Assembly: GCA_041663565.1 (NCBI GenBank)
Contig: JBAYMJ010000003.1
Location: 4,188 to 68,187 of the forward strand
Reading direction: 5' to 3'
DNA: 64,000 bases
Source: Candidatus Micrarchaeia archaeon
GTDB lineage: Archaea > Micrarchaeota > Micrarchaeia > Norongarragalinales > CAINOH01
Each line of letters starts with the position of its first letter. Within the stretch, counting starts at the first letter, position 1. The notes beneath the pieces are model-generated. The model worked only from the letters and a program-made list of their open reading frames with translations. It was not told the DNA's origin and ran no database searches. Shown here in pieces: positions 11,984-38,883 of the stretch. Made by a program: the position numbers and the translations under genes.

Positions 11984-12217
11984 GAGAAAATCGTCCCTGA
12001 ATATAGGAATGAAACCGAGATTATTAATTGCCTATCCGATGCGTCAGGCGACGAAGAAAGGTATTACGTTTTGTGAGGAAAAGCCAAAGGAAAAAAACCG
12101 GAAAGCTGCGATTGTAGTGCCTACGATTATCCAATATCTTCTAAGTTGGTTCGGCACTACATTCTTGGTTTGGCTTGAAGAGAAATAGCAAAAAAAGAAG
12201 AAGATGGCTGGAAGTTA

Positions 12218-13669
12218 CTACTTGCAACAGCGGAACCCGACGTTCCCGTCGCTGTCCGACGGCGCGTAGTGCAAGTACAGGGCAAAGGAGCCCGCCCATG
12301 CCCCACCGGCACAGTACCCGCCGCGGGTGAACGCGTGAACATTCCCACCATCCGATGCAGTACCCGGGTCAGAATACAAGCGCCCAACGCCATTATTTTG
12401 ATTCCAAGACGAAACCGGCAAACGACTCCAACTCGCGGACATGAAATTCGTAACCGAGGAATACTCAACCCAACCAGTACAAGGCACCGGCATCGTCCCA
12501 CTGCTGCAAGCCGTACTCATAATCGTGCCGTCCGTCCACTCCCACACGTTGCCCGACAAGTCCCAAACCGCGTCACCAGTAGAAAGGGACATCGTCCGCC
12601 TCTGCTCCTTGCCATAACCCGCGCCCGTAGTGAACGGGCAGGAAAAACTGTTCGCCGCACTGTTGCCGGTGCCGCTGTAAGGGTCGTCGTCAGTGGAAGC
12701 AGCCAACACACCCGAGGGGTCGTTGTCCGTGTGCCCGCCGTACAAGCAACCACTTCCAACAACGCCGCTCTGCCAGTTGGAAGCAACGTTCGCAACGTTA
12801 TTCGCAACCACATTCCACTCGCGGTCACGAATCAAATGATACCCCGAACCGAGGGCGGAGCAACGACTGGAAGCATAAGTATGGTTGATGCTCCTCCAAG
12901 GCACCAAAACCGCCTGCGAAGTGGCCGTGCCGCTGACGTTCTTGGCCTCGTACTTCATCATGCAAAAATCATTCACAAGAAACGAAGAATTGCCCGGCAC
13001 CTTCACCCAATTGGCGTCGCAGGCTTTTGTTCCGCACGAGGTGACAATCGGCTTGTCGCCCTTGAGGATAAGATTGGTTACGCCCGAACCGCCAAGGGAA
13101 TAAGCGAACTGGACGCTGGAGATTTCAACGCCGGTTTTCCCGGCGCAGTCAATCACGTTACCTACGCCAGAAACCGCGCCTTGAGCAGCGACATAAGCGG
13201 ATTCCCCGGGACCCAACATCAAAGCACAAGTCATCGACGGAGCCGAAAAATTGTCATACGGACGCGAACAATACGCTGCGCCATAGTAGTCGCCTGCGTT
13301 GTAAGGGTAAATTGGAAGGTCGGTGCCACCGACATTAATGCCATCCAAACGGATGGTGAACGTGCCCGTATTCTGCAAGCCAAGAACGAGGTTCGAGTCA
13401 ACAACCTTGGAAGACAAAACCTTAATCGGCGACAATGAAGACCAATACGCCTGCGACTGCTGCTGCTTAATCGAAGCCTGCGAAGACGGAAAGGAATACA
13501 TCGCGCTTACGACAACAATCGAAACCAAAAGGACGGCGCCAAGAACGACCAAGTATTCAGTCGCGCCCTGGCCTTTGCGCGGACCGCCCGTGTTTTGGCC
13601 GCGAAGAATTCCGCGAAAACGGGACAGTAAACGTCCGAAAGCCATACGACAAAGTAAGGGCAGCCGCAA
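12218..13669 (-). CDS. Prepilin-like (class III signal peptide) protein with a C-terminal FGE/SUMF1 (C-type-lectin-fold) domain
   Basis: N-terminus ...PRKGQGATEYLVVLGAVLLVSIVVV is an archaeal pilin-type signal. FGE-domain motifs present: FCMMKYEAK, GYHLIRDREW, VWDLSGNVWEWTDG, RGGY...GFRCCK at the very C-terminus. Confidence 0.7.
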   Translation of the reverse strand: MRLPLLCRMAFGRLLSRFRGILRGQNTGGPRKGQGATEYLVVLGAVLLVSIVVVSAMYSFPSSQASIKQQQSQAYWSSLSPIKVLSSKVVDSNLVLGLQNTGTFTIRLDGINVGGTDLPIYPYNAGDYYGAAYCSRPYDNFSAPSMTCALMLGPGESAYVAAQGAVSGVGNVIDCAGKTGVEISSVQFAYSLGGSGVTNLILKGDKPIVTSCGTKACDANWVKVPGNSSFLVNDFCMMKYEAKNVSGTATSQAVLVPWRSINHTYASSRCSALGSGYHLIRDREWNVVANNVANVASNWQSGVVGSGCLYGGHTDNDPSGVLAASTDDDPYSGTGNSAANSFSCPFTTGAGYGKEQRRTMSLSTGDAVWDLSGNVWEWTDGTIMSTACSSGTMPVPCTGWVEYSSVTNFMSASWSRLPVSSWNQNNGVGRLYSDPGTASDGGNVHAFTRGGYCAGGAWAGSFALYLHYAPSDSDGNVGFRCCK

Positions 13670-13732
13670 TTAAAACTTGCCGTTGCCTCGCCGGGACTGA
13701 CCGATAAATCATCGGACAGGCTCGCTGGAATC

Positions 13733-14218: not shown

Positions 14219-14253
14219 GTTTCAGTTCACCATCAATCGTAAGTAAAACTTCT

Positions 14254-15423: not shown

Positions 15424-15428
15424 CGGAA

Positions 15429-16496: not shown

Positions 16497-16647
16497 CGAT
16501 AAACGTCAACTTGACTCATTGACTTAAGTAGGTTGGTTTGAAATACTATTCGGCTGCCTGCCATTAAAAAAGCCGCCCCAAATCGTCAGGCAGCGAAGAT
16601 GCAAATCAATTAGAAGCTCCGGCTTTCCTAAACATCTAAGGGTAAAC

Positions 16648-17181
16648 ATGACACGCGCGCTGTTCATCGGAAGGTTCCAGCCCATACACGAGGGCCACCT
16701 TTCCGCAATCAAGGAAATCCTCTCGCAATACGACGAGGTGGCGATAATCGTGGGCTCCTCCCAGGAGAACCTCACCGGACGCAACCCGCTCACAACTGGC
16801 GAACGCATCGAGATGATTTACGCGGTCCTGCGGGCCAACGGCTTTGCAAGCCGCGCATACGTCATTCCCGTGCCGGACACCCCGGAATCTGGTTTGTGGC
16901 CAGCACGCGTGCTTTCCTATGCGCCCAAGGTTGACGCGGTCTTCACCGCAAATGACTACACGCAGAACCTGTTTTCGATTTACAACGGAAGCGTGCGCGA
17001 CGGCATCCGGATAATCAACCAGAAGGTGGTTGGAAAGATTTCCGCAACCGCAATACGCGACAAGATAATCAAGGGCGACGCGTCGTGGGAAAGGATGGTG
17101 CCAAAAGATGCGGTTGCATTCTTGAAAAAAAACAAGTTGGATGCAAGAATAAAGATTCTTGCGGATTCTTCCATTGGATAA
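16648..17181 (+). CDS. Nicotinamide-nucleotide adenylyltransferase (archaeal NMNAT)
   Basis: RALFIGRFQPIHEGHL nucleotidyltransferase motif and ISATAIRDKI. 177 aa. Confidence 0.85.
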   Translation: MTRALFIGRFQPIHEGHLSAIKEILSQYDEVAIIVGSSQENLTGRNPLTTGERIEMIYAVLRANGFASRAYVIPVPDTPESGLWPARVLSYAPKVDAVFTANDYTQNLFSIYNGSVRDGIRIINQKVVGKISATAIRDKIIKGDASWERMVPKDAVAFLKKNKLDARIKILADSSIG

Positions 17182-17205
17182 TCAGACATCAGGTAACTTT
17201 CAATC

Positions 17206-18471
17206 TTGACAATCGCAGGTGCTTTCACGATGACTTCCTTCTCCGGGTTCTACAAATTGTCGCGCAAGGAACGCCTTGCAAAAATCAAGGAGTTCGCTGG
17301 GCTTACCGACGAGGAAATCAAGACCCTCGAATCAGCTGACGCGCTCGGCTTCGAGACTGCTGACAGGATGGTTGAGAACGCAATCGGGACGTTCCAGCTT
17401 CCGCTCGGCGTTGCCGTGAACTTCGTAATCAACGGCCAGGAAAAAGTCATTCCGATGGCAACCGAGGAGCCGTCTGTGATTGCAGCTGCAAGCAACGGCG
17501 CGAAGCTCGCGCTTCCGGAAGGCTTTTCGACAGGCACAACGGACCCGATTATGATTGGCCAAATCCAGCTTGTGAACGTGCCTGATGCAAAGAAGTCGGC
17601 AAAGGAAATCATTGCCAAGAAGAAGGAAATAATCGCGATGGCGAACAAGCCCGACGCGCCGATGGTAAAGTACGGCGGAGGGGTAAAGGAACTTGACGTC
17701 AAGGAATACGACACGCCACGCGGCAAGATGCTCGTGGTTTACCTCTTCATAGACTGCAGGGACGCGATGGGCGCGAACGCGGTGAACACGTTCTGCGAGA
17801 CTCTTGCTCCCGAATTTGAAAAATTGACTGGAGCAAAAGCGCGCCTTAGGATTTTGTCCAATTTTGCAACCCAAAGGATTGCGAAGGCAAAAGCCGTTTG
17901 GAAAAAGGAAACCATCGGCGAGGAAGCCATTGAAGGAATCCTCGACGCTTACGAGTTCGCGGCAGCGGACAACTTCCGGGCAGCAACGCACAACAAGGGC
18001 GTGATGAACGGCATTGATGCGGTCGTGATTGCAACCGGGAACGACTGGCGGGCCGTGGAAGCCGGCGCACACTCGTTTGCATCGATGAGCGGAAGATGCA
18101 TGCCACTTACCAAATACAAAAAGACCAAGTCTGGCGACTTGGAGGGTGAAATTGAAATCCCGATGGCAGTCGGGCTCGTCGGTGGGGCCACCAAGACCCA
18201 CCCGGTTGCAAAGCTTGCTGTGAAGATGCTTGGCGTCAAGTCCGCAGGCGAGCTTGCGCAAGTCATCGCGGCAGTCGGCCTGTCCCAGAATTTTGCCGCG
18301 CTCAAGGCGCTTTCGACCGAGGGAATCCAGCGCGGCCACATGGAACTGCACGCCCGTAACGTAGCTGTTGCAGCCGGAGCCAAGGGCAAGCAGGTTGACG
18401 AGATTGCGGAGAAGATGATTTCCGAAAAGAACATCCGGCAGGAGCGCGCTGCCGAGCTTCTGAAGAAATAG
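17206..18471 (+). CDS. hmgA: HMG-CoA reductase; ATG likely at 17230
   Basis: MTSFSGFYKLSRKERL..., EEPSVIAAASNGAKL, DAMGANAVN, GIQRGHMELHARN. Confidence 0.9.
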   Translation: MTIAGAFTMTSFSGFYKLSRKERLAKIKEFAGLTDEEIKTLESADALGFETADRMVENAIGTFQLPLGVAVNFVINGQEKVIPMATEEPSVIAAASNGAKLALPEGFSTGTTDPIMIGQIQLVNVPDAKKSAKEIIAKKKEIIAMANKPDAPMVKYGGGVKELDVKEYDTPRGKMLVVYLFIDCRDAMGANAVNTFCETLAPEFEKLTGAKARLRILSNFATQRIAKAKAVWKKETIGEEAIEGILDAYEFAAADNFRAATHNKGVMNGIDAVVIATGNDWRAVEAGAHSFASMSGRCMPLTKYKKTKSGDLEGEIEIPMAVGLVGGATKTHPVAKLAVKMLGVKSAGELAQVIAAVGLSQNFAALKALSTEGIQRGHMELHARNVAVAAGAKGKQVDEIAEKMISEKNIRQERAAELLKK

Positions 18472-18963: not shown

Positions 18964-19998
18964 TTAGAAGTTCGTGAATATGCCGCTGGTCACGCTGCGC
19001 GCAATCTGGAAGACGATGATTGACCCTATTGCCAGCAGCGGGAAGTATTTTACGCCGTAGAGTATCTTGCCGCGCGAAATCACGCCCATCAGCACCGACG
19101 CAAAGAAGGCCGTGCCTATCAGGGACATGTAGGATATGAAGATGGCGTACTCGGAGTTGATGACCACCTGACCGGAGAAGAACGGCAGCGAGTAGCCTTC
19201 GATGGCCTCGCCGGAAAACTGGCCCTTTATGCCAGAGTATATGTCCAAAAACTGCGCGGATACCGCAAGCAGGCAGGGGCTGACTATCAGGATGATGAAG
19301 AACAAAAACATCGTGTAGGAACGAGTTGAGGTTATCAGCTCCGCCTTGAGCTCCTGGTTCCGCCTGACTTCCTCCGAAATCGCGGTGAGGAGCTCGGCAA
19401 GCTGGCCGCCCGAACGCACGCTCTTTTCGAAAAGCGTGATTGTGCGCTCGAGTATCTCGGAGTCTATGCGCTCGTTGATTGAGCTCAGCGCCTCGGCAAG
19501 CGACTGGCTGGAGCCGGCCTTCACCGCCGCTATCTGGATCTCCTTCTCAAGCGGCCCGAGCTCGGCAGTCGCGGAGCGCCTGAACGCGTTGAACGGGGTC
19601 ATGCCCGCGCGCAGGTTCGCGGCAATCATGAGCAAAAACTCGGGCAGCACGCGCTCGACCTGCTCGGAGCGGGAGACTATCGAGTAGTATATCACCAAGT
19701 AGAAACCGAAAACCCCGATTGCGAAGCCTATGAAGAAGGACAGGACGCACAGCATGCCGACAAGGAGGGGCGAAAACGTGCCGAAGTCTATTATCAGGAC
19801 CTTCAGGTCCACAAGATAGAACACGAAGGGCAGGATGGAAAACAGCAGGCCGATGATTACGGAGTAGATTGCGCGCTTGCCGAACCAGCGCGCGGCGTCC
19901 TCCGAGCCGCCCGCCTTGTTTATCTTGTCCTGCAGGATGCCGCGCTGCTTGAGGGGCAGGAACTCGCCGATGCGCCTGTAGAACGAACCTAGCTTCAT
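18964..19998 (-). CDS. Type II secretion system F-family (TadC/FlaJ-like) pilus assembly membrane protein, paralogue 2
   Basis: Start trimmed to ATG 19998 (MKLGSFYRRIGEFLPL...), which forms an ATGA overlap with the upstream gene stop. It is a polytopic membrane protein with the cytoplasmic helical-domain pattern typical of GspF/TadC. Confidence 0.7.
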   Translation of the reverse strand: MKLGSFYRRIGEFLPLKQRGILQDKINKAGGSEDAARWFGKRAIYSVIIGLLFSILPFVFYLVDLKVLIIDFGTFSPLLVGMLCVLSFFIGFAIGVFGFYLVIYYSIVSRSEQVERVLPEFLLMIAANLRAGMTPFNAFRRSATAELGPLEKEIQIAAVKAGSSQSLAEALSSINERIDSEILERTITLFEKSVRSGGQLAELLTAISEEVRRNQELKAELITSTRSYTMFLFFIILIVSPCLLAVSAQFLDIYSGIKGQFSGEAIEGYSLPFFSGQVVINSEYAIFISYMSLIGTAFFASVLMGVISRGKILYGVKYFPLLAIGSIIVFQIARSVTSGIFTNF

Positions 19999-20879
19999 AC
20001 CGCGGGCCTCGATGAATTTATGTAGCCTATCAGGCCAATCTGGCCCAGGAACGCGCCGAAGAGGATGACAAGGTACGCCTCCTCGGAAAGGCCTATGCCT
20101 GAGAACGTCGAAAGCAATATGAGGAAGGTCATGCCGATGGACGGCAGCGCGGCAGCCACGAGCATGTACATGAGCACCAAAAAGTTGAGGCTTGCCGAGA
20201 AGTCCTTGACCACCTGGCGGCGGTCCACCATCAGGTTGTCCACAATCTTGCGGAGCGTGTCGTTGAGGGGTGCGCCCGAGTCGAGCGCAGTGAGCAGCTG
20301 CCACACTATCTTCTTGAGGTACTCGCTGCGGCTGCGGAGCGCCATGCGCTCGAGCGCCTTCTTTTCGGGCATGCCGTTGTTTATGTCGCGAACGGTTATC
20401 GCGAACGCGCGCGAGGCGTAGCCGTAGCTGCCCTGCGCCACGTTGAGCATCGCGTTGTACAGCGTGACCCCCGACTCTATCTGCAGCGAAAGCTCGCGAA
20501 GGGCGAACACCAGCTCGTTGTCCGTCATCTGCGCGATTTTCCGCAGCATTATTGTCGGGTAGTAGAGGTAGAACGCGAGCGCGCAGGCGAATGCGAGGGC
20601 CACCATGCCAAGCAGGAAGAACGCGCTCAGCTGCGCGCCTATCAGGGTGATGAAGAAGAACAGGAAGCCGAGGAAGAACGCGATTATGCCTGCTGAAAAC
20701 GTGGCGGCGCCGATGTAGTCCTCCGGGTCGAAGTTCTCGAAAAGCTGCACCAGGTCGTTGCGCACGCCGGGCAGCAGCATCAGCACGTTGGCGGCTATGT
20801 TGTGCATCTTGTGCGAGAAGCCGCGCTTGGGCTGGATTAGCAAGAAGGGTATGCGCGCCTGCTTGACCTGCGGTTGCAT
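19995..20879 (-). CDS. Type II secretion system F-family (TadC/FlaJ-like) pilus assembly membrane protein, paralogue 1
   Basis: 294 aa, polytopic, directly downstream (6 nt) of the secretion ATPase. Confidence 0.7.
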   Translation of the reverse strand: MQPQVKQARIPFLLIQPKRGFSHKMHNIAANVLMLLPGVRNDLVQLFENFDPEDYIGAATFSAGIIAFFLGFLFFFITLIGAQLSAFFLLGMVALAFACALAFYLYYPTIMLRKIAQMTDNELVFALRELSLQIESGVTLYNAMLNVAQGSYGYASRAFAITVRDINNGMPEKKALERMALRSRSEYLKKIVWQLLTALDSGAPLNDTLRKIVDNLMVDRRQVVKDFSASLNFLVLMYMLVAAALPSIGMTFLILLSTFSGIGLSEEAYLVILFGAFLGQIGLIGYINSSRPAV

Positions 20880-20885: not shown

Positions 20886-22637
20886 TCAGACCTTCTCCGG
20901 CGAGATGTTCTTCTCGACCGCGTCAATCACCGACGCCTCGTCGGCATAGTAGGCCTTCATCACGCCGCCCACCTGGTCCGCGTTGTTCCATTTCCATTCG
21001 TTCATCCAGTCCAGTATCGCCGCCTTGTTCTGCTGATCCTCGATGATCTCGCGCTCGATGAGGCCCGTGTGCAGGTTCATGTAGTCGTAGTAGCGCGAGG
21101 GCGCCTTGACGAACTCGTACGAGTCCGAGCGCGGCCTCCACAGGTAAACGTGGTTGAGGTCGGGCATCCCGTCCGTCGGGATGACTTCGGAAATCTCGAG
21201 CGTCCGGCGCAGGTTCTTGCGCCTGTCGCGGTACTGCATCACGACAAGGTTTATGGCCTCGAGCTCGTTCTCGGGAATCTCGATGGGCGGGTGCGTAAGG
21301 CGGTTGACGAGCTGCACGCCGGTATCGGCGTGTACCGTCGAGAGCACGGAGTGGCCCGTGTGCATGGCCTCGAAGAGCACCTCGGCTTCCGCTTTCCTGC
21401 GGATTTCGCCGAGTATGATTCGGTCGGGGCGCATGCGCAGGGCGTTTATCATCAGGTCGAGCGTGGTTACCTCGCCCTTTCCTTCCTGGTTTGCCGAGCG
21501 GGAGATGAGCGGAATCCAGTTCCACTCGTACTTCGCAGGCATCAGCTCGCGCGTATCCTCGATGGTGACCACGCGGTGGTGCGGCTGGATGAGCGAGAAC
21601 AGCGCGTTGAGCATGCTGGTCTTCCCGCTTGCCGTCCCGCCGCCAATCAGGACGTTGAACTCGTAGTGCACCGACTGCCATATGAGCGCGGCCATCTCCG
21701 GCGAGAGCGTCTTGTTGGCGCCGTAGGACAGGTTGACTATGGTCCACGGGTCGCGCGAGAACTTGCGGATGGTCAGGGTGTTTCCTGCGGATGACACCGG
21801 CATGAGCGTGGCGTTCACGCGGTCGCCGGTGTCAAGCTGCGCGTCAAGAAGCGGCGAGAGTATGCTGACCTGTTTTCCTGCGCGCCTGCTGATGAGCGAG
21901 GCCATGTTGGAGACGTCCTCGTCCGTGCCGATGAAGAGGTTGGTGTGCATCCAGCCGTACTTGCGGTGGTAAACGCCGATGGGCTCGTCGCCCTTGTTGA
22001 TTATGATTTCCTCGGTATTGGCGTCCTGCATGAGCACGTCGATGTCGCCGAGGCCGTACATGGAGCGCGTGATTATTCCCGCAAGGACGGGCAGGTCCTT
22101 GTCTGCAGGCGCAAGCTCCGCCTTTATCTTTGCGCTCACCATCGCGTACTTCTCGGCCGGGGTCTGACCCTTCTTGGAGCCGAACGCGCCTGAAGAATCC
22201 GCCGGCGCCTCCTTCGCTATCTCGTCCTGTAAATAGGAAAAGTAAATCCTGCTGTAGGGGCTGACCGAAGGCACGTCGACATGGTAGACCGGCCTGCGGG
22301 AGAAGTTGTCGAAGAAGATTTTTACGGTGGTGACGACGTCGCCTTCCTCGGACTTTATCGGGTAGGAGTCTATCATCTCCGACGCGGGCTTTGGCACCGC
22401 GCGCTCGGACAGCTCGGTCTTGAGGTTGACTATTGGGTCTTCCGCTATGTTGAGCGGGTAGTATAGGTCAACGACCGAGTGGGCCTCCAGGAGCTTGACT
22501 ATGCGGTCAACGGCATCCGGCGACCAGTCGAGGCGCTTCGCAGCCTCGCCTACGGTAAGGTCGCCTAGCTTAATCAGGTCAATCAGGTCGTCTATCTTGG
22601 TCCGAATCATGGGTATGAGCCCCGCAAGCCACTTCAT
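20886..22637 (-). CDS. Type II/IV secretion system ATPase (archaeal FlaI/PilB-like)
   Basis: Walker A GGGTASGKTSMLNAL, VTIEDTRELM, RMRPDRIILGEIR, AMHTGHSVLSTVHA. Confidence 0.85.
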   Translation of the reverse strand: MKWLAGLIPMIRTKIDDLIDLIKLGDLTVGEAAKRLDWSPDAVDRIVKLLEAHSVVDLYYPLNIAEDPIVNLKTELSERAVPKPASEMIDSYPIKSEEGDVVTTVKIFFDNFSRRPVYHVDVPSVSPYSRIYFSYLQDEIAKEAPADSSGAFGSKKGQTPAEKYAMVSAKIKAELAPADKDLPVLAGIITRSMYGLGDIDVLMQDANTEEIIINKGDEPIGVYHRKYGWMHTNLFIGTDEDVSNMASLISRRAGKQVSILSPLLDAQLDTGDRVNATLMPVSSAGNTLTIRKFSRDPWTIVNLSYGANKTLSPEMAALIWQSVHYEFNVLIGGGTASGKTSMLNALFSLIQPHHRVVTIEDTRELMPAKYEWNWIPLISRSANQEGKGEVTTLDLMINALRMRPDRIILGEIRRKAEAEVLFEAMHTGHSVLSTVHADTGVQLVNRLTHPPIEIPENELEAINLVVMQYRDRRKNLRRTLEISEVIPTDGMPDLNHVYLWRPRSDSYEFVKAPSRYYDYMNLHTGLIEREIIEDQQNKAAILDWMNEWKWNNADQVGGVMKAYYADEASVIDAVEKNISPEKV

Positions 22638-24283: not shown

Positions 24284-24419
24284 GTTTTCTGACCCCGTTT
24301 TGCAAGCAGATTAATGCGGGGTGGATTAAAACGGTAATGTCGAATGGCTCCCCTGCGACCCGCCGGCTGCTTACTGCCGACCCGCCACAAAAACCTCCCG
24401 CGCGCTGGGAACGGTTAAA

Positions 24420-25586
24420 ATGCACTGCCTTCCTCGTAAGTTGGGGGAAACGATGCGCGGCCAAGCCTCAACTGAATACCTGGTAGTCCTCGGTGCGGTC
24501 CTTGCGGTCGGGCTGGTCGCAGTAGGCACCATGGCCGCGCTCCCGTCGTTCGGCCAGATGGCAAGGCAGCAGCAGCTTGACCAGTACTGGATGGCCGCGA
24601 CGCCCTTCTCTATAACGGCCATCAAGCTCAGCGACGGCAACTTCTCGCTTTCCGTCGCAAACAACGCAAAGAAGCCCGAGGTGCTTACAGGCATCGAGCT
24701 TGGCACGGGCACGCAGGTAATCCAGTTCTGGGCGTCCAACGGCTCGCAAAGCTTCCGGCCGGGCCAGGAAACGGTGGTCGCGAACGAGTCGTTCAACTTT
24801 TCAGGAAACCCCTGCTTCGGCAAGCCCGTCGGCACGTATTACGAGTTTGACAACATCACACTAGTCTACACCGAAGGGAGCATCCCCGGCATGCGCCAGG
24901 CGGGCATGGGCATCGCGGGCGCCTGCTCGGGAGTGGACCTGACCTCGCCGGCGGTCAACGCACAGCCGGGATACGCCTTCCTTTCAGGCTACGTGCACGA
25001 CGCTTCGGGCGCCGGGCTTGCAAGCGCGCGCATCAACGTCACGAACGCGACGAACGCCCTCTCGGCGGTGACCGACGCTTCGGGCTACTACTGGCTCAAC
25101 GTCCCGCTTTCCGGGTCCTCGCAATTTTCGGTCAACGCAAGCTCCGGCGCGATGTACAACTACACCGCGACAACGGTGCTCCTCATAACAGAGACGCCCG
25201 CCACGCTCAACTTCGTGATAGGCAGCCAGCCGGGAATAGAGTACATTACGTTCATCCGGGACGCCTCCGGAAGCAATGTCGCTGCATTCACGACTTCGGG
25301 CAACCTTGTGCTGAAGGGCGGGTGCTACTCTGGAGCGAGCTGCTCAACCCCGCCGGACGGCTCGCTCATAATACGCGACTCCTCCGGGACGGCCCACGCG
25401 TACATCAACAGCTCGGGCAGCCTCTGCGTCGAGGACGCGAACTGCAACTACTACGATTCCAATTGCAACGACGCGCCCGACGGCTCGCTGATACTGCGAA
25501 GCCCTTCTGGCGCGAACGCGACGTACATAAGCCCGACGGGCACGCTGTGCACGATTGGCGAGATTTGGCAGTACGGCACGCCATAG
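24420..25586 (+). CDS. Prepilin-like protein (class III signal peptide) with a CarboxypepD_reg-like domain and Cys-containing C-terminal repeats; ATG likely at 24453
   Basis: MRGQ/ASTEYLVVLGAVLAVGLVAV is a canonical archaeal pilin signal. ...GYVHDASGAGLASARINVTNATN...GYYWLNV has the carboxypeptidase-regulatory-like pattern. The repeats are PPDGSLIIRDSSGTAHAYINSSGSLC and APDGSLILRSPSGANATYISPTGTLC. Confidence 0.65.
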   Translation: MHCLPRKLGETMRGQASTEYLVVLGAVLAVGLVAVGTMAALPSFGQMARQQQLDQYWMAATPFSITAIKLSDGNFSLSVANNAKKPEVLTGIELGTGTQVIQFWASNGSQSFRPGQETVVANESFNFSGNPCFGKPVGTYYEFDNITLVYTEGSIPGMRQAGMGIAGACSGVDLTSPAVNAQPGYAFLSGYVHDASGAGLASARINVTNATNALSAVTDASGYYWLNVPLSGSSQFSVNASSGAMYNYTATTVLLITETPATLNFVIGSQPGIEYITFIRDASGSNVAAFTTSGNLVLKGGCYSGASCSTPPDGSLIIRDSSGTAHAYINSSGSLCVEDANCNYYDSNCNDAPDGSLILRSPSGANATYISPTGTLCTIGEIWQYGTP

Positions 25587-25616
25587 TCGTGCTTCGGAAA
25601 ATTATCTTGATTCGAG

Positions 25617-27320
25617 TTGAGAAAAATGAAAAAAGAAAACGCGTTCGCAAACAAAACCCGCCTTGCAATGGCCCTGCTGTTTGCAGTCTTCCTCTCAGGC
25701 ATTGCGACCGCAGGCAGCGTGATAATCCAGAACGGCCAGGTCAACGCGAGCTCGAGCTTCAACGCAAGCAACGTCCTCTTCGTCAACCCCGTGACGGGAT
25801 ACGTGGGCATCGGCACTGCAACATCGACGAGGCCGCTTCAAATCTCCACAATCCAAGACGCGAACATCCGCCTGCAAGACACGTCGGGTTCCGCGCCAGC
25901 AGCATATGTGGAATTCTACAACGACACCACCAGATGGGGGTACGTCGGCCTGGGAGGGCACGACGACAAGATGGTCATCGGCACGAACATAGAAAAGAGT
26001 CTTTCTTTCTACACGAACAACTCGCCAAAGATGGTCCTGACCGCAGACGGAAAAGTGGGAATCGGCACAACAGACCCGCAGGCAAAGCTTGACGTGAACG
26101 GGACGCTGAACGCGTATGCGTTCACGGTCAACGGTTCCGCGCTGGCCGCGGGTTCGAACCAGTGGAACACGTCAGGCGCGAACATCTACAACACAACTGC
26201 AAACGTCGGCATAGGCACGTCAAGTCCAATGGCCGCATTACACGTCAATGGTTCAGCGTCCAGTTTTGAAACCAGGCTGCAGACTACTGCAAACAACGTC
26301 CTGTTAAACTTCAGGGACCGCTTGGGAAATTATCAGGTGGGCGTCAGTAGTGGGTTCTCGACGCCCTCTTGGTACGTTTACGACGCCACTGCAGGCACAA
26401 CGCGTTTACTCATCGACGGCAACGGCAACGTGGGCATCGGGACGACGTCCCCTGCCAAGAAACTGGACGTGGCCGGAGACATCCAGGCTTCCGGCGATGT
26501 CTGCGCCAACGGCACCTGCCTCAGCTATTTCTCCTGCCCCAGTGGCGGCACCCTAAAATGCACCGAAACCGTGGACGCCGGGTCGATTGTCTTTAAGGTT
26601 ACGGGCGTCGGGTCGACGACTTGGTCCCCGCCCGACGGGGTCACCTCGGTAAGGTACCTCATCGTCGGCGGCGGGGGAGGCGGTGCGACATACGAAGGCG
26701 GGGGAGGCGGAGGTGGCGGAGTGCTGACCGGGACGGTCAGCGTAACTGCAGGAACCGTTTATACCATCACTGTCGGCAGGGGCGGCCTGCCAGCACAAAA
26801 CGGACAGAACACGTATTTTTCCCCAGTAGGCACTGCATTAGGCGGAGGCGGCGGGGTAACGTTTAGCTCCAATGGCTTGAGCGGGGGTTGCGGGGGTGGT
26901 GGCGGCTCGTCCTTCTACGGGTATTCCGGCGGTACCGGCACCTCCGGGCAAGGCTATAATGGCGGCGCTGGCACGAGCGAAGGCATAGATGGCGGTTACG
27001 GCGGAGGAGGCGGAGGCGCTGGCGGTGCAGGATCCAGTTCAAGTGGCGGGATTGGCCTTGCGTCAACAATTACGGGCACGAAAGTGTATTACGCCGGCGG
27101 TGGCGGAGGCGGCGGCAATTGGAACCTTGCTACCGGGTCGTCAAATGGGCTCGGAGGCGGAGGCCACGGCGGCGGATTGAATAACGATGCAAAGAACGGT
27201 ACCAACGGGCTTGGCGGTGGAGGCGGAGGCGCGGGTTTTGTCGCTGTGGGGTCGGGTGGTGCGTGGCCAGCGGCATTTGGCGGTTCGGGCCTCGTCATCC
27301 TGCGCTATAACGTACCTTAA
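25617..27320 (+). CDS. Secreted tail-fibre-like protein A: conserved N-module, GxVGIGT repeats, hyper-glycine-rich C-terminal domain
   Basis: Sec signal ...LAMALLFAVFLSGIATAGS. Repeated motif G(N/K)VGIGTTxPxxKLDV. C-terminal domain VRYLIVGGGGGGATYEGGGGGGGG...GGSGLVILRYNVP. Many N-x-S/T sequons. Confidence 0.7.
   Translation: MRKMKKENAFANKTRLAMALLFAVFLSGIATAGSVIIQNGQVNASSSFNASNVLFVNPVTGYVGIGTATSTRPLQISTIQDANIRLQDTSGSAPAAYVEFYNDTTRWGYVGLGGHDDKMVIGTNIEKSLSFYTNNSPKMVLTADGKVGIGTTDPQAKLDVNGTLNAYAFTVNGSALAAGSNQWNTSGANIYNTTANVGIGTSSPMAALHVNGSASSFETRLQTTANNVLLNFRDRLGNYQVGVSSGFSTPSWYVYDATAGTTRLLIDGNGNVGIGTTSPAKKLDVAGDIQASGDVCANGTCLSYFSCPSGGTLKCTETVDAGSIVFKVTGVGSTTWSPPDGVTSVRYLIVGGGGGGATYEGGGGGGGGVLTGTVSVTAGTVYTITVGRGGLPAQNGQNTYFSPVGTALGGGGGVTFSSNGLSGGCGGGGGSSFYGYSGGTGTSGQGYNGGAGTSEGIDGGYGGGGGGAGGAGSSSSGGIGLASTITGTKVYYAGGGGGGGNWNLATGSSNGLGGGGHGGGLNNDAKNGTNGLGGGGGGAGFVAVGSGGAWPAAFGGSGLVILRYNVP
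25711..26072 (+). repeat. Copy 1 of the ~360-bp shared 5' module of the fibre paralogues
   Basis: Read directly. 25887..25999 is 113/113 identical to 27602..27714. Confidence 0.85.
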
Positions 27321-27334
27321 CAAATTACGAGTGG

Positions 27335-29485
27335 ATGAAAATGGGAAAAGAAACCGGCATTGAAAAAAGCGCTCTTGCAAAAATACTTGCAATTACCGCG
27401 CTCCTGCTGACTGGCCCCGCTGCCGCAGGCAGCGTGATAATCCAAAATGGGCAAATCAACGCGAGCAATAGTTTCAATGCAAGCAACGTCCTCTTCGTCA
27501 ACCCCGTGACGGGATACGTCGGCATCGGCACTGCAACATCGACAAGGCCGCTGCAGATTGCCGCAGCACAGGATGCCGTGATTCGGTTGCAGGACACTTC
27601 AGGTTCCGCGCCAGCAGCATATGTGGAATTCTACAACGACACCACCAGATGGGGGTACGTCGGCCTGGGAGGGCACGACGACAAGATGGTCATCGGCACG
27701 AACATAGAAAAGAGCCTCTCTTTCTACACTAACGATTCCCCGAAGATGACGCTGACTGCGGCGGGAAACGTGGGCATCGGCACAACAAGCCCATCTATGC
27801 GGCTTGAACTCGTTGGCAGTCTAGCCAATACCGATTCGGAAAACATACTAGGACTTACCCGGCAATATTATGAAGGTGTATCGCATCCAAATGCGGCTGC
27901 TTTTGCCCTTAGTCACCCCAGCGATAACACTCCAAATAGCAGACTCGACATCAAACTATCAAACCAACTATATACTCCCAACCCGAACATCACGGTCATG
28001 TCCCTCCGGGCGGATGGCAACGTCGGAATCGGCACGATGAGCCCTTCGGCGAAATTGGATGTCGTGGGCGGGCAGACCATCAGCGGCAGTTTGTCCGTTG
28101 GCAGGAGCACGTATTACGCGGATGCTAAGATACATATCTTTGCAAGCGGTGGCGGCAGGATCATCCAGATGAATGCGAACGACAGTGACGTTTCAACGAG
28201 TGTCTATCAGTTGATGGCTGCGAAGGATTCGGGCGGCATTAATCGTTGGTGGAATTTCGGGGTCAATTCCGACAACAGCTTTAGGATAAATCCAGGACCC
28301 GACAACATCGGTGGTTCGATGTTCGTCGTCAGTTCAAGCGGCAACGTCGGCATAGGCACGACTTCGCCCAGTACGCTGCTTCACGTGGCGAAAGCAAACG
28401 GAGATGCTTACATCATCATGCAACGTACGGGCACAAGCGCTTCGTCCTACAGCGTCGGGACGCAGGCTACTGGGTTTGCCATCTATGATCAGACTGCGGC
28501 GACAACCCGGCTTGCTATTGGCAGTTCCGGCAACGTCGGCATCGGAACCACCAGTCCATCCAGCGTTCTGGAAATCTATAAGGCAAGCAGCGGAATAGGG
28601 CCGACTTTGACGTTGAACAACCCGACTGGCGCTGTCGGGTCAGCCGGGGTTGCGATAGACTTCGTGGGTTACAGCCCCGCGAGCCAGCCAATCACAAACA
28701 GGATTCAGACAATAGATGACGGGACCTACGGATATCATATGGCCTTCTTGACTAAGGCGGATAGTTCCGGCGGAGCACTTTTTGAAGCTGTGAGGATACA
28801 GGGTGGAACAGGCAACGTCGGCATAGGCAATACTGCGCCTACAGGCAGGCTATCAGTAGAGGGAGCGGCAAGCGACGCTTCATTGACATCCAAGGCAACC
28901 TCGTTGGTGTCCATTACGAATCCAACCAACGACTTGGAATTTGCGATTGGCCAGATGGCCGGGGCGCCATACGCAACTTGGCTGCAAAATAGGAATTATG
29001 AAGTAACTGGTCAATATTATCCAATTGCATTGCAACCACTGGGTGGATCTGTCGGTATCGGTACCACCAGTCCCGGCTACACCCTGACCGTAGCCGGAAC
29101 CGCTTGGGTGACTTCCGGTTCGTGGTCGGGCTCGGACGCTAGGTGGAAGAGGAACGTGACTGCGCTTTCGCCTTCGAGTTCGCTTGACAAGATTCTCGCG
29201 CTGCGGCCGGTCAACTTCGAGTGGAAGACCGAGGAATATCCTAAGATGGGCTTCACCAACGGTACGCAAGTCGGTTTCATCGCACAGGACGTCGAAAAAA
29301 TAATCCCCGAAGTCGTCACGACGGACAACAACGGCTACAAGGGGATGTCCTATGAGAGGCTGACGCCAGTAATCACCGGAGCGATGCAGGAACAGCAGAA
29401 GCAGATTGAAGTGCTTAAGGCGGAGAACGGCCTGCTCAAGGCCGAGCTCTGTGCAAAGGACAGGACGTACTCGTGGTGCGATTGA
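27335..29485 (+). CDS. Secreted tail-fibre-like protein B: conserved N-module, long GNVGIGT-repeat shaft, C-terminal Peptidase_S74-type intramolecular chaperone domain
   Basis: It has the same N-module as A and C and at least 7 GNVGIGT(T/M)SPS repeats. The C-terminus SDARWKRNVTALS...LRPVNFEWK...VGFIAQDVEKIIPEVV...GMSYERLTPVITGAMQEQQKQIEVLKAENGLLKAEL matches the auto-cleaving chaperone of phage tail fibres and endosialidases. Confidence 0.75.
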   Translation: MKMGKETGIEKSALAKILAITALLLTGPAAAGSVIIQNGQINASNSFNASNVLFVNPVTGYVGIGTATSTRPLQIAAAQDAVIRLQDTSGSAPAAYVEFYNDTTRWGYVGLGGHDDKMVIGTNIEKSLSFYTNDSPKMTLTAAGNVGIGTTSPSMRLELVGSLANTDSENILGLTRQYYEGVSHPNAAAFALSHPSDNTPNSRLDIKLSNQLYTPNPNITVMSLRADGNVGIGTMSPSAKLDVVGGQTISGSLSVGRSTYYADAKIHIFASGGGRIIQMNANDSDVSTSVYQLMAAKDSGGINRWWNFGVNSDNSFRINPGPDNIGGSMFVVSSSGNVGIGTTSPSTLLHVAKANGDAYIIMQRTGTSASSYSVGTQATGFAIYDQTAATTRLAIGSSGNVGIGTTSPSSVLEIYKASSGIGPTLTLNNPTGAVGSAGVAIDFVGYSPASQPITNRIQTIDDGTYGYHMAFLTKADSSGGALFEAVRIQGGTGNVGIGNTAPTGRLSVEGAASDASLTSKATSLVSITNPTNDLEFAIGQMAGAPYATWLQNRNYEVTGQYYPIALQPLGGSVGIGTTSPGYTLTVAGTAWVTSGSWSGSDARWKRNVTALSPSSSLDKILALRPVNFEWKTEEYPKMGFTNGTQVGFIAQDVEKIIPEVVTTDNNGYKGMSYERLTPVITGAMQEQQKQIEVLKAENGLLKAELCAKDRTYSWCD
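27425..27787 (+). repeat. Copy 2 of the shared 5' module
   Basis: 27479..27576 is 97/98 identical to 29629..29726. 27602..27714 is identical to copy 1. Confidence 0.85.
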
Positions 29486-31257
29486 ACCGGAAGGCGGTTG
29501 GTAAAAAAATGAAAAACAATGTTCTTTTTGGAATAGTTTTCCTGACGTTTCTTTTCCTCTTCGGAACTGCAGCAGCTGGCAGCGTGATAATCCAGAACGG
29601 CCAGATTAATGCAAGCAGCAACCTGAACGCAAGCAACGTCCTCTTCGTCAACCCCGTGACCGGATACGTCGGCATCGGCACTGCAACATCGACAAGGCCG
29701 CTGCAGATTGCCGCAGCACAGGATGCGAACATCCGGCTCCAAGACACCTCGGGCGCATCGCCGGCCGCTTACGTCGAGTTCTACAACGACACCACGCGCT
29801 GGGGCTATGTGGGCTTGGGTGGGCACGACGACAAGATGACCCTTGGAACAACGATTGAAAAGAACCTCTCATTCTACACGAACAACAGCCCCAAGATGAC
29901 AATAACTACGACAGGCAACGTGGGAATTGGGACGGCGAGCCCGGCTGCCAAGCTTGACGTGAACGGGTCGATTTTTGTAGAGCCTGACGCGTGGAATAAT
30001 TCAATCGTTTACTTTGCCAACACCACTGGCTCGGCTAAATGGCACATAGTGCGGATGGATAATGATGGGTCGCTAAGAGTCACGGAAAGCGGCGTTGCGG
30101 ACAGGGTCACAATCCAAAACGGCACCGGCTACGTCGGCATCGGGATGACTAACCCCCTTGCGAAAGGGCACATCCTTTTGGGGTCAGCTGGGACTACGCC
30201 AAACTTCACCATCGCACCTTCCTTGATTTTGGAGCATTCCGGGTACGACGGCCAACTGCAATTTTTAGCCCCGTCAACAAGGGCGTCGTACATAATGTTC
30301 GGCGACGAGCGGAATTACGCGCGTGGAGGCATAGTCTACGACCACCGCGCCGGCTCGGAATCGCTGGCGCTTTCCAGCCAGAACGGAAGCGTGACCATAG
30401 TTGCTGGAGGCAACGTCGGCATCAACACCTCAACCCCCGCGTCCAAGCTGCAGGTTGCAGGCGGGGAAGTCCAGACTGGCACAAGCAACGCGTCGTGCTC
30501 AAGCTCCAACGCTGGAGCCATAAGGTGGAGTGGGAACAGCTTCTGGGCGTGCAACGGCACGATGTGGGCATACGTCAACTTGCAGGCGCCGGTTGCCGCC
30601 ACCGGCGGGACGATAACAGACATCGCAGGCTACCGCGTGCACACATTCACAAGCGGCGGCACGTTCACAATCACAAGCGGCAGCGGGCCTTTTGAAATCC
30701 TTATCGTCGGTGGCGGGGGCTCTTACGGCAATCCTGGCGCTTGGGGCGGAGGCATGGGCGGCGCCGGCGGAGTCCTGATGGGCACGCTGACCGGCTTGAG
30801 CGGAAGCTATTCGGTAGTGGTCGGTGCTGGCGGAACCGGCGGGTCGAACACGGGCACCCAAGGCAGCAGCTCAAGTTTCGGAAGCTACACCGCCTATGGC
30901 GGGGGCTATGGAGTCAACTTTGCCACCTATGGCAACGGCGCGAATGGAGGGTCTGGAGGAGGCTGCGGATATGGCGGGTGCTCTGGAGGAAGCTCCACAC
31001 AGACGTCGCAAGCACCCTTGGTCGGGTATGGAAATGCCGGCACGATTTTTGGCGGAGGCGGCGCGGGCGGGGCGGGCCAATCCTACGCGGGCGGGCTCGG
31101 CATTTACAGCACCATCTCTGGACAGTCAGTATATTATGCATCTGGAGGCGAACAAGGCGAGGGGTCCTACATAGGGCAGGGAGGGTGCGGGTACCAGTCC
31201 ACGAGCGGCTGCAATGGCAAGACCGGAATAGTAATCATCCGATACCCGCGGCCATAG
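29473..31257 (+). CDS. Secreted tail-fibre-like protein C: conserved N-module, distinct middle region, glycine-rich C-terminal domain; ATG likely at 29509
   Basis: MKNNVLFGIVFLTFLFLFGTAAAGS signal. The N-module is near-identical to A and B. The C-terminal domain runs from FEILIVGGGGSYGNPGAWGGGMGGAGG to NGKTGIVIIRYPRP. Confidence 0.7.
   Translation: MVRLNRKAVGKKMKNNVLFGIVFLTFLFLFGTAAAGSVIIQNGQINASSNLNASNVLFVNPVTGYVGIGTATSTRPLQIAAAQDANIRLQDTSGASPAAYVEFYNDTTRWGYVGLGGHDDKMTLGTTIEKNLSFYTNNSPKMTITTTGNVGIGTASPAAKLDVNGSIFVEPDAWNNSIVYFANTTGSAKWHIVRMDNDGSLRVTESGVADRVTIQNGTGYVGIGMTNPLAKGHILLGSAGTTPNFTIAPSLILEHSGYDGQLQFLAPSTRASYIMFGDERNYARGGIVYDHRAGSESLALSSQNGSVTIVAGGNVGINTSTPASKLQVAGGEVQTGTSNASCSSSNAGAIRWSGNSFWACNGTMWAYVNLQAPVAATGGTITDIAGYRVHTFTSGGTFTITSGSGPFEILIVGGGGSYGNPGAWGGGMGGAGGVLMGTLTGLSGSYSVVVGAGGTGGSNTGTQGSSSSFGSYTAYGGGYGVNFATYGNGANGGSGGGCGYGGCSGGSSTQTSQAPLVGYGNAGTIFGGGGAGGAGQSYAGGLGIYSTISGQSVYYASGGEQGEGSYIGQGGCGYQSTSGCNGKTGIVIIRYPRP
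29577..29937 (+). repeat. Copy 3 of the shared 5' module
   Basis: See copies 1 and 2. It is more diverged from A and B in the 3' half of the module. Confidence 0.85.
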
Positions 31258-31337
31258 GCCGGCCAAAGACGCGTGCAAAATGGAAAGGCCTGCGCCCATT
31301 TCGTAGGTTATATATTGCCCATCGGTGAAACTCCTGT

Positions 31338-31634
31338 ATGGACTTCGCAAAGTCGGCTGAACGGACGCCCAAGAAGGCAAAAATAGCAATCGGAATACTC
31401 GTGGTGCTGCTTGTCGCGGCCCTCGGCTACATCGGCTGGGGCGTGTATCAGCAGCAGAGGTACGACGACGCCCTCGGCGCGTACAAGCAGGGCTACACGC
31501 AGGGGGTCACGGACGCCACCACCACGCTCTACCAGTACACCGACGGGTGCGGGGCGGCGAAGCTGTTTTTGGGCAACGTGACGCGGCAGGTAGTTGACCT
31601 GGACTGCGTAAAGCAGGCCAACTCTACAGGCTAA
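31338..31634 (+). CDS. Small single-pass membrane protein, hypothetical
   Basis: 98 aa. Basic N-terminus, TM segment IAIGILVVLLVAALGYIGWGV, and two Cys in the ectodomain. Confidence 0.45.
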   Translation: MDFAKSAERTPKKAKIAIGILVVLLVAALGYIGWGVYQQQRYDDALGAYKQGYTQGVTDATTTLYQYTDGCGAAKLFLGNVTRQVVDLDCVKQANSTG

Positions 31635-37499: not shown

Positions 37500-38738
37500 A
37501 TGATTCACGATGAAGTAGTCCGGGAAATAAAGAAATTTGGAGCATACAAGCGGGCGGACTCGGAAATAAAGTACGACCCCAAGACAGGCAAAGCCACGCT
37601 CAGGCTTGACGTGAAAAACGACTATGGGACGGTAAAGGAACTGTTCCCTGACTTTTACAACGAGAAACTGAAACCCCTTGCCGAGGCGCCGATGGTAGGC
37701 AATGGGAAAATCGTGCAACAAAGCACCGCAAGCAACGTCAACGATGCCACAAAGCCGCTTGTGAACCTCGCAAACGCAATACGCGCCCAGTACCCGGACG
37801 TTCACGTCTCCCGCAGGGCTGCCGCCCACGTGCTCATACAAGACAACAAGGCAATTGCTGCGACGCCAACCGTAGTCAAGTGGTGCCCGCTTTCAAGCTG
37901 GCTCTTCGAGCGCGACTTCAAGGAAAACCTCCTAGCCGAGACCAACGACGTCGTAATCGGCAAGAACCGCTCATTTGACAAGACGCGGCCCCTTGAGACC
38001 GAAAACGACCCCGTGCCTTTCGGCGCGTCGGAATCGATGAGCGACGCGATGCGCGCAGGAAAGATTGACTGCATGGTGTCCGCCTGTGAAGGCATCGGGA
38101 CAATCATCACAACAGAGCCCAAGACCACCCTCGGAGTGGGCGCGGTGATGACCGGACTCGTACACACCGCACCGAACCCCACGTTGATAGAGCGCAGCAC
38201 CGCGCTCGGCAACATCATAGTGCACCCGGAGACTGCAAGGATTGACCAGGTGGCGGGAGTGAAGATGGCGCTTGAGCGGGGCTACAAAAAGATTGCAGTC
38301 ACCGTGGCAGGCACCAAGGCCGAGGACATCAGCAAGATTGTCGCCCTCAGGCGCAAGCACACTGACGCGGAGATAAACATCATAACGGTTTGCACGACCA
38401 ACGTGACCCAGAAACAGACCGACCTGATTAGGAAGCACTCCGACATCATCTATTCCTGCGCATCGGGAAACATCCGCAAGGCGTGCGCAAGAAAGGGCTC
38501 GCAACTGGGAACCAAGATACCCGTGTACCTTTCCAGAAAAGGCGTGCAGCTTGTTGCGCCGCGCCTAATCAAGATGGACCCCTCGGCGAGAAAGAAGGTC
38601 GAAAAGATGGTGGAAAGCGGCAAGCACTTTTTTGCATACCGCGGCACCAAGGGCGACAACCAGACGATAAGGCTGCGGACAATAGACGCGCTTGCAAAAG
38701 AGCCAAGGGGACAGCCAAGGCCGCTGACATACAGATAA
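37500..38738 (+). CDS. Conserved hypothetical protein (possibly DUF2099 family; uncertain)
   Basis: 412 aa. The central region VPFGASESMSDAMRAGKIDCMVSACEGIGTIITTEP...ERGYKKIAVTV resembles my memory of archaeal DUF2099 proteins. I cannot verify this without an HMM search. Confidence 0.35.
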   Translation: MIHDEVVREIKKFGAYKRADSEIKYDPKTGKATLRLDVKNDYGTVKELFPDFYNEKLKPLAEAPMVGNGKIVQQSTASNVNDATKPLVNLANAIRAQYPDVHVSRRAAAHVLIQDNKAIAATPTVVKWCPLSSWLFERDFKENLLAETNDVVIGKNRSFDKTRPLETENDPVPFGASESMSDAMRAGKIDCMVSACEGIGTIITTEPKTTLGVGAVMTGLVHTAPNPTLIERSTALGNIIVHPETARIDQVAGVKMALERGYKKIAVTVAGTKAEDISKIVALRRKHTDAEINIITVCTTNVTQKQTDLIRKHSDIIYSCASGNIRKACARKGSQLGTKIPVYLSRKGVQLVAPRLIKMDPSARKKVEKMVESGKHFFAYRGTKGDNQTIRLRTIDALAKEPRGQPRPLTYR

Positions 38739-38757
38739 ACAGGCAATACGAAGTGAA

Positions 38758-38782
38758 CCTCCGGAGATGCTGACTCCGGAGG
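38758..38782 (+). terminator. Perfect hairpin CCTCCGGAG-atgctga-CTCCGGAGG downstream of 37500..38738
   Basis: 9-bp stem and 7-nt loop, 20 nt past the stop codon. Read directly. Confidence 0.45.
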
Positions 38783-38791
38783 AGCCTAGAC

Positions 38792-38826
38792 CTACTAATA
38801 ACTACTAATGAATGTCAAATTAGTAG
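38792..38826. promoter_or_regulatory. Operator-like 35-bp repeat, copy 1 (contains the inverted repeat CTACTAAT-n9-ATTAGTAG)
   Basis: ctactaataactactaatgaatgtcaaattagtag. 34/35 identical to copy 2. An AT-rich TATA-like gattaatattcatt lies between the copies. Confidence 0.6.
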
Positions 38827-38848
38827 ATAGATTAATATTCATTCTCAA

Positions 38849-38883
38849 CTACTAACAACTACTAATGAATGTCAAATTAGTAG
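38849..38883. promoter_or_regulatory. Operator-like 35-bp repeat, copy 2, abutting the Fic start codon
   Basis: ctactaacaactactaatgaatgtcaaattagtag. It ends 1 nt before the TTG at 38884 (ATG at 38893). Confidence 0.6.

Follow-up and report, generated by a model that had tools for sequence, protein, structure and literature searches.

Why should the chromosome of a small archaeon carry, beside type IV pilus machinery, a gene for a pilin-like protein followed directly by three genes that resemble those of phage tail fibres? This question is raised by the locus at 24453-31634 of the window (the whole 64,000-nucleotide stretch of DNA that was analysed), and an earlier note on this DNA had answered it by proposing an undescribed archaeal surface-fibre or cell-attachment system. 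The evidence tips somewhat in favour of a chromosomal cell-surface adhesin system of a Micrarchaeia archaeon, the pilin-linked counterpart of the mosaic adhesive trimer (MAT) fibres of Bdellovibrio. The parts of this model differ in strength: that the fibres are MAT-type cell-surface adhesins is very likely, that they are functionally coupled to the pilin-like protein is probable, and that they are physically docked on its C-terminal head is a tentative proposal. By the NCBI names of identical proteins, the source is 'Candidatus Micrarchaeia archaeon' (DPANN), and contigs of its relatives reach about 1.2 Mb, in keeping with the small-genome archaeon that the earlier note had envisaged.

Five genes lie on the forward strand at 24453-31634, with successive gaps of 39, 14, 23 and 80 nt; the first gap, between the pilin-like gene and fibre B, is 39 nt from the ATG start of fibre B or 30 nt from its TTG start.

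24284-24452, no strand: divergent intergenic region between the AMP-phosphorylase/type IV pilus operon (reverse strand) and the pilin-fibre operon (forward strand)
24453-25586, forward strand: gene of the pilin-like protein, 377 aa (the open reading frame (ORF) opens at 24420 and the true start is the ATG at 24453, MRGQASTEYLVVLGAVL...; public gene calls agree on 377 aa)
25626-27320, forward strand: fibre B, 564 aa (ATG at 25626, alternative TTG at 25617)
25713-26084, forward strand: N-module of fibre B, residues 30-153
27335-29485, forward strand: fibre C, 716 aa
27428-27799, forward strand: N-module of fibre C, residues 32-155
29132-29485, forward strand: S74 auto-chaperone domain of fibre C, residues 600-716
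29509-31257, forward strand: fibre D, 582 aa (ATG at 29509; the ORF opens at the GTG at 29473)
29578-29949, forward strand: N-module of fibre D, residues 24-147
31338-31634, forward strand: membrane protein E, 98 aa, a single-pass membrane protein encoded 3' of fibre D

The four co-directional, tightly spaced genes of the earlier note were recovered with small corrections of their start codons; the span it gave, 24420-31634, holds these four as reported and at its end also covers the fifth gene (98 aa, 31338-31634). A TATA-like TTAAAA can be read near 24415-24421 in the divergent intergenic region, which is a candidate promoter region. Scans for sigma-70 promoters and intrinsic terminators gave counts at the level of shuffled sequence, and both models are unsuited to archaea. 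Identical proteins bear the NCBI names 'tail fiber domain-containing', 'glycine-rich domain-containing' and 'carboxypeptidase-like regulatory domain-containing'; an exact look-up of the 716-aa form of fibre C returned no record.

Fibres B, C and D are built on one plan, and the elements that had been read from their translations were all found: Sec-type signals (by inspection, a charged n-region, a hydrophobic core of 12-15 residues and an A-x-A-G/S site in each), a near-identical N-terminal module (N-module), a shaft of VGIGTxxPxxxL repeats (3 in B, 6 in C, 3 in D) and differing tips. The Pfam search placed all three tips above threshold, those of fibres B and D in Gly_rich_2 (PF21722, 80.2 and 44.6 bits respectively, versus a 24.3-bit cut-off) and that of fibre C in Peptidase_S74 (63.6 bits versus a 22-bit cut-off). 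The last 250 aa of fibre B are 38% Gly. The S74 domain of fibre C has the catalytic SDxxxK (SDARWK) at residues 600-605 and a phmmer match to the S74 structure of MYRF (7DC3), and is predicted from its sequence to be cut off at Ser600 after trimerisation. A phmmer search of the PDB with the glycine-rich tip found no solved structure; such tips may resemble polyglycine-II adhesin tips. Over its whole length, fibre D shares 59% identity with a 611-aa fibre of a related genome, and fibres of relatives also bear fibrinogen-like and other tips. One N-module fibre from another locus (P0061) carries PF03781.

The closest solved structures to the fibres are the cellular MAT fibres of Bdellovibrio bacteriovorus: phmmer matched 8OJN/8ONB/8ONC (E = 5e-7 and 3e-6), 8OND (Bd2133, E about 3e-6 to 1e-5) and 8OML (Bd1334), and the VGIGTxxPxxxL motifs align with the capping loops of 8OJN and 8OND. 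No NCBIfam family matched either the fibres or the pilin-like protein. Caulton et al. 2024 (PMC10769870) define MAT proteins by a signal peptide, a conserved domain of ~130 aa, capping loops and tips that may or may not be of the S74 type, and in Bdellovibrio they form trimeric beta-helix shafts, a mosaic set of 21 paralogues on the surface of the predator (PMC10769870). The likeness to the archaeal proteins is extensive: both are cellular, both place after the signal peptide a domain of ~120-130 aa that is common to the paralogues, and both have beta-helix shafts with the same capping-loop motif, S74 as well as non-S74 tips and a multi-paralogue mosaic repertoire, Bdellovibrio itself living by attachment to other cells. 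The window fibres differ in being archaeal (DPANN) and shorter (560-720 aa versus ~1,000 aa), in including Gly_rich_2 among their tips, and in being encoded in tandem behind a class III pilin-like gene next to type IV pilus machinery.

The N-module agrees with the MAT domain in position, size and conservation. It occupies ~124 aa directly past the signal peptide, is bounded at each end by one VGIGT capping-loop motif, and follows the signal peptide directly in 30 of the 30 database matches that carry the module; its core (RPLHxxAxQDANIRLQDTSGxxPAAYxEFYNDTxRWGYVGLGGHDDKM) is 63-93% identical over the twelve tabulated paralogues. Among the three window fibres, protein identity over the module is 84-90% and DNA identity 77-85%. 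Because 26-41% of the codons for identical amino acids differ among the window copies, the N-module is evidently under purifying selection; recent gene conversion, considered as the source of the identity, is ruled out by the same codon differences. The archaeal core forms a narrow, lineage-specific family: 1.84 billion representative proteins, searched exhaustively with HMMER, gave only 65 matches, of which 24 are strong and all N-terminal, while the weaker ones are internal or repeated, one of them from a Woesearchaeote. A scan of a genome collection with the N-module returned two loci only, one a spurious Phycisphaeraceae match and the other (L002, from another archaeal metagenome-assembled genome) encoding a lone protein with the module in an internal position and with neither pilin nor type IV pilus neighbours.

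The phage resemblance of the fibres calls for a decision between a cellular and a viral origin of the locus. The fibres are 25-31% identical to cyanophage, pelagiphage and Thermus-phage tail fibres, and also score against PHROG tail-fibre families. They share with phage S74 tail fibres and tailspikes (K1F endosialidase, the T5 L-shaped fibre, cyanophage and pelagiphage fibres) the shaft repeats, the S74 domain and swappable tips, as well as an N-terminus that is conserved while the C-terminal tips vary. On these grounds, and because the S74 domain is shared with IMG/VR contigs (at 31-41% identity), the genes might be read as tail-fibre genes left by a degraded provirus, a tailocin or an extracellular contractile injection system. 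This reading is highly improbable, for several reasons. The products bear Sec or class III signals, for which a virion protein has no use, and relatives of neither the N-module nor the pilin-like family were found in the 2.9 million viral contigs of IMG/VR. In 8 genomes the locus keeps one fixed place, with AMP phosphorylase on one side and FtsZ on the other, and its GC content is even and equals that of the flanks. Among the ORFs scanned in the window (all large ORFs across the 64 kb, with some small ORFs left out), no capsid, portal, terminase, tail, baseplate, sheath, tube or integrase family was found, and no reverse transcriptase or diversity-generating retroelement is among the families found there. 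All scanned ORFs are cellular (ribosomal proteins, aminoacyl-tRNA synthetases, pyruvate kinase, FtsZ, Spt5, the archaeal mevalonate pathway), with the conserved archaeal string FtsZ-SecE-Spt5-L11 directly downstream of the locus. Likewise, ~15 related loci with annotated neighbours yielded no gene for a capsid, portal, terminase, sheath, tube, baseplate or integrase, and those neighbours are cellular (FtsZ/SecE/Spt5/L11, AMP phosphorylase, hydrogenase subunits, the diaminopimelate (DAP) pathway, Hjc). The absence of viral structural genes that had been remarked on near the locus thus extends to the scanned ORFs of the whole window. Neither of two findings that the earlier note had named as counting against a cellular system was made: the ~15 annotated related loci are not embedded in proviruses, and the N-module, not found in IMG/VR, did not prove to be a known phage baseplate-attachment domain.

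The gene that heads the cluster encodes, in order, a class III (prepilin-type) signal, an N-terminal helix, a beta-sandwich domain, an Ig-like CarboxypepD_reg domain (39 bits in Pfam, above threshold) and a Cys-rich C-terminal domain. The translated N-terminus is MRG/QASTEYLVVLGAVL, where the slash marks the cleavage site, and the motif MRG/QASTEYLVVLGAVLAVGLV (a short charged leader, a G/Q-type cleavage site and a hydrophobic helix) is kept throughout a 12-member family alignment; on this conservation the archaeal class III signal that had been assigned to the first gene stands, with a Pfam score below threshold. In an AlphaFold2 model (pLDDT 75), residues 8-47 form a helix, followed by three beta domains (52-159, 174-251 and 265-373). 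Foldseek matches this model to the Pyrobaculum archaeal type IV pilin 8fk7_A (E = 1.8e-4, target TM-score 0.48), to beta-sandwich adhesins and to the S-layer stalk protein SlaB; phmmer against the PDB gave only marginal cohesin-like matches. According to the alignment of 12 homologues, the most conserved part of the family is the C-terminal ~115 aa, with three repeats and eight cysteines, and in paralogues a Pro/Thr linker can stand in place of the middle Ig-like domain. The family is tiny, with 13 homologues in 5.8 billion proteins.

Upstream of the locus, on the opposite strand, are AMP phosphorylase and the genes of a pilus-type machine, as had been noted from the sequence (a FlaI/PilB-like ATPase and two TadC-like genes) and as Pfam agrees:

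20886-22637, reverse strand: type IV pilus-type assembly ATPase (T2SSE; FlaI/TadA-like; Pfam; FlaI is the best NCBIfam match, below cut-off)
19995-20879, reverse strand: TadC/T2SSF-like membrane platform gene (Pfam)
18964-19998, reverse strand: TadC/T2SSF-like membrane platform gene (Pfam)

The position of the ATPase gene is maintained in 8 syntenic loci. In Sulfolobus, the bindosome consists of binding proteins with class III signals that are mounted by BasEF, and adhesive archaeal type IV pili are similarly assembled. The pilin-like protein resembles such proteins in being a large class III protein with a helix and a beta-sandwich head, encoded near a FlaI/TadA-type ATPase and TadC-like genes. 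It differs in that its family is tiny and lineage-specific, has a three-repeat Cys-rich head, and is systematically followed by tail-fibre-like genes.

The association of the two gene families recurs across relatives. A fibre gene is the next gene downstream of the pilin-like gene in six of seven distinct contexts, giving 14 distinct pairs. The syntenic locus, found in 8 genomes or strains, consists of the pilin-like gene, 1, 3, 4 or 5 fibre genes, a gene of 98 or 99 aa and FtsZ. Other arrangements are:

L007/L008: 324-aa pilin-like gene, then two or three S74 fibres
L011: pilin-like gene, then a 1074-aa fibre
L015: pilin-like gene, then a 1019-aa fibre, within an island of giant class III adhesins
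L028: pilin-like gene, then a fibre
L013: on a single strand, pilin-like gene, fibre, T2SSF, PAC2 and PIN-T2SSE
L012: counterpart of L013 in a different genome, without the fibre

The co-occurrence of fibres with pilin and type IV pilus genes, the absence of which the earlier note would have counted against its proposal, is therefore strong (six of the seven pilin contexts, often beside ATPase/TadC genes). In addition, the class III signal is in some cases fused directly to fibre shaft and tip domains (372 aa in L007, 556 aa with a fibrinogen-like tip in L010, 460 aa in L008). Distances between pilin C-terminal domains are correlated with distances between the N-modules of the adjacent fibres (Mantel r = 0.78, p = 1e-4, 14 pairs); therefore each pilin-fibre pair has been inherited or duplicated as one unit, which is no proof of contact.

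Some further observations concern these loci. The loci L012 (8001-13316) and L013 (2389-11223) represent a second type IV pilus-like system of the relatives, headed by a pilin-like paralogue, with a single 550-aa T2SSF protein, a PAC2-family protein and a PIN-T2SSE fusion ATPase, followed by MazE/PIN toxin-antitoxin genes. An IS605 OrfB/TnpB (Cas12f-like) gene lies at 2206-3387 of L007, ~3.4 kb upstream of one pilin-fibre locus; there is none in the window. The adhesin island of L015 (1-17005) and L033 (JGI Ga0310040_1000001, ~194-215 kb) encodes class III proteins of 606, 765, 1342 and >1590 aa that combine CarboxypepD_reg with Gly_rich_2, Laminin_G_3 and TSP_1 around a pilin-like/S74-fibre gene pair; thus the same tip domains are used on pilin-type and Sec-type carriers.

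A working model of the system can be drawn from these features. Fibres B, C and D would be exported via Sec and fold as trimers, with beta-helix modules delimited by the VGIGTxxPxxxL capping loops; in fibre C, the S74 domain would chaperone trimerisation and then cleave itself off at Ser600. The N-module would retain each fibre on the cell, and the variable tips (glycine-rich in B and D, a post-cleavage beta-helix tip in C) would bind structures of the host surface. The likeliest anchor would be the co-transcribed 377-aa class III protein, which would undergo type IV pilin-like processing, be inserted or assembled by the ATPase/TadC machinery encoded nearby, and offer its conserved three-repeat Cys-rich head as the docking platform for the N-module. 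In the most specific form of the model, the pilin-like protein is a dedicated adaptor: a pilus-like machine mounts the pilin, and its pseudo-threefold Cys-rich head docks the trimeric fibres for host recognition. We put this form forward as a possibility on the doubtful side of even.

Several results weigh against docking and against the model as a whole. The Class_IIIsignal score of the pilin-like protein is only 14.4 bits, under the Pfam cut-off of 23.7 bits, and the 64-kb window encodes neither a prepilin peptidase nor a small major pilin. What the N-module aligns to, in Bdellovibrio Bd2133 (PDB 8OND), is an ordinary trimeric beta-helix shaft domain; judging by sequence, the module appears to be no special docking fold, and its conservation could reflect folding or trimer nucleation instead. 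The AlphaFold2 monomer of the N-module was uninformative (pLDDT 65.7, almost no secondary structure), as expected because the module would be part of an intertwined trimer, and was not used for a fold search. The Mantel correlation would also arise if the two genes of a pair were simply co-inherited or co-duplicated. Finally, a pilin-like gene is missing from the position directly upstream in about half of the distinct fibre loci (L018/L020, L025/L029, L019, L023, L030 and locus 3, which has class III proteins downstream).

These results bear most on an alternative in which the locus is an adhesin island without docking: the fibres and the pilin-like protein would be independent adhesins that are co-located and co-regulated for attachment, the fibres being held to the membrane or S-layer in some other way (for example through the 98-aa membrane protein or an envelope glycan) and the N-module nucleating trimer folding or secretion. 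The homology of the N-module to a generic shaft module with capping loops, the several fibre loci with no adjoining pilin-like gene and the internal module of the lone L002 protein all fit this alternative, as do the clustering of many adhesins in the L015/L033 island and the constant place of the 98-aa membrane protein after the fibres at the syntenic locus. Pairing in six of seven contexts from the pilin side, recurring at non-syntenic loci, is nevertheless hard to obtain through co-regulation alone in a family of only 13 homologues; the fusions of class III signals to fibre shafts show that this lineage mounts such shafts on pilin-type anchors; and the gene of the 98-aa protein is missing from all non-syntenic fibre loci and has a TATA-like box of its own. 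We therefore regard independent adhesins as rather unlikely, though to be taken seriously.

The 98-aa protein deserves separate mention in this respect. Its gene comes after the last fibre gene and ahead of FtsZ in 8 of 8 syntenic loci, occurs only at this FtsZ-linked locus and in none of the non-syntenic fibre loci, and encodes a protein that is 85% identical in the relative L006. A TATA-like box (TTATATAT) at 31309-31316, ~22-29 nt 5' of its ATG, suggests a separate, possibly leaderless, transcript. A role of this protein as the fibre anchor was considered and is left open in view of the FtsZ synteny, the separate TATA-like box and the absence of the gene from other fibre loci; its place in the adhesin system is uncertain, and it may be unrelated.

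The fibre genes turn over much faster than their surroundings. Between the window and the relative L006, protein identity is 95% for FtsZ, 92% for AMP phosphorylase and 74% for the pilin-like protein, while the fibres are mosaic, with exchanged tips. L007 and L008 are 99.5% identical in the flanking DNA, yet a whole 2.6-kb fibre gene differs between them, and a neighbouring fibre locus (L007 18440-23435, L008 18458-23435) has been wholly replaced, one strain encoding a 740-aa S74 fibre and the other a 644-aa Gly_rich_2 and S74 fibre together with a 460-aa class III protein. Similarly, the fibre genes of L016 and L017 have been replaced between flanks that are 99% identical. Each ~1.2-Mb genome has 11 or more N-module fibre genes, which make up roughly 2% of its DNA. 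The repeated N-module DNA may be a substrate for recombination between fibre genes, which would add, remove and swap them and so retune host recognition.

This turnover also bears on what the fibres hold. The same machinery could have a target other than host cells, such as abiotic surfaces, biofilm matrix or environmental polysaccharides, or could act as viral decoys, in as much as glycine-rich, fibrinogen-like and lectin-like tips are generic binders of carbohydrates and surfaces. Strain-level turnover of fibres with mosaic tips, however, fits partner recognition under diversifying selection, and the nearest characterised family, MAT, serves in prey recognition. Moreover, cultured Micrarchaeota are obligate episymbionts (PMC11329633, PMC5498576). 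We accordingly consider a non-host target improbable.

Elsewhere in the window there is a second protein with a class III signal:

12218-13645, reverse strand: second class III-signal protein, 475 aa (...RKG/QGATEYLVVLGAVLL; Pfam Class_IIIsignal E = 0.006)

It bears the N-terminal signature of the pilin family, scores 100 against the hidden Markov model of that family and is a distant member of it, with no fibre gene adjoining. The earlier note had described it (at 12218..13669) as prepilin-like with a lectin-fold domain; the class III signal stands and the lectin fold is not confirmed: the C-terminal region holds a GNVWEW motif reminiscent of the FGE-sulfatase/C-type-lectin fold and Pfam supports no such domain. 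Around this gene, at 8840-18471, is a near-complete mevalonate pathway of the archaeal type (an AcnX-like dehydratase, a UbiD-like decarboxylase, a UbiX flavoprotein, a thiolase/HMG-CoA synthase/OB-fold trio and HMG-CoA reductase), notable in that DPANN archaea often lack lipid biosynthesis. At 37500-40203, DUF2099 and Fic/DOC genes with a GC content of 0.49 (versus ~0.57 elsewhere) lie between M3 peptidase and ribosomal protein L1, which directly follow one another in L006 without these genes; the segment looks like a small insertion bearing a Fic toxin-like gene. At 62542-63843 (reverse strand), adjoining an ABC permease of the MacB/FtsX type, is encoded a 433-aa protein with an N-terminal signal, a C-terminal transmembrane anchor and no Pfam match, which may be a surface or S-layer-like protein.

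How much of this is new can be stated by comparison with the literature. Fibre proteins of the MAT-like, tail-fibre-like kind are already known and carry generic automatic annotations, so that the description of the system as undescribed fails for the fibres, MAT fibres having the same layout, and holds for their presence in archaea and their linkage to a pilin. Archaea are not mentioned in the MAT paper (PMC10769870), and literature searches found neither a description of such fibres in DPANN archaea nor a report of a pilin-like gene followed by tail-fibre-like genes. In the micrarchaeote Mia14, LamG-domain proteins have been described as expanded putative host-interaction adhesins beside type IV pilus loci (PMC5498576); these belong to other protein families, and no tail-fibre-like, S74 or MAT architecture is described there. 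What appears to be new is the expansion and rapid turnover of fibres in a DPANN lineage, their recurrent pairing with a class III protein and type IV pilus machinery, and the class III-fibre fusions.

Little is known of the molecules with which DPANN archaea find their hosts and hold on to them, and this locus offers a concrete and testable candidate: a hypervariable, phage-derived adhesin repertoire that takes up ~2% of a 1.2-Mb genome and is linked genetically both to type IV pilus machinery and to a pilin-like protein. With it, the MAT concept, first drawn from a bacterial predator, reaches an archaeal episymbiont, and this suggests a parallel recruitment of tail-fibre modules by cell-dependent microbes of very different kinds. 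In Bdellovibrio the anchor of MAT fibres is not yet identified, type IV pili having been named just as a possibility (PMC10769870); if the adaptor reading is true, the conserved pilin-fibre pair would supply a candidate class of anchor. The strain-level turnover of fibre genes could mark host range in metagenomes, and the locus is probably the kit with which this archaeon grips its host cells.

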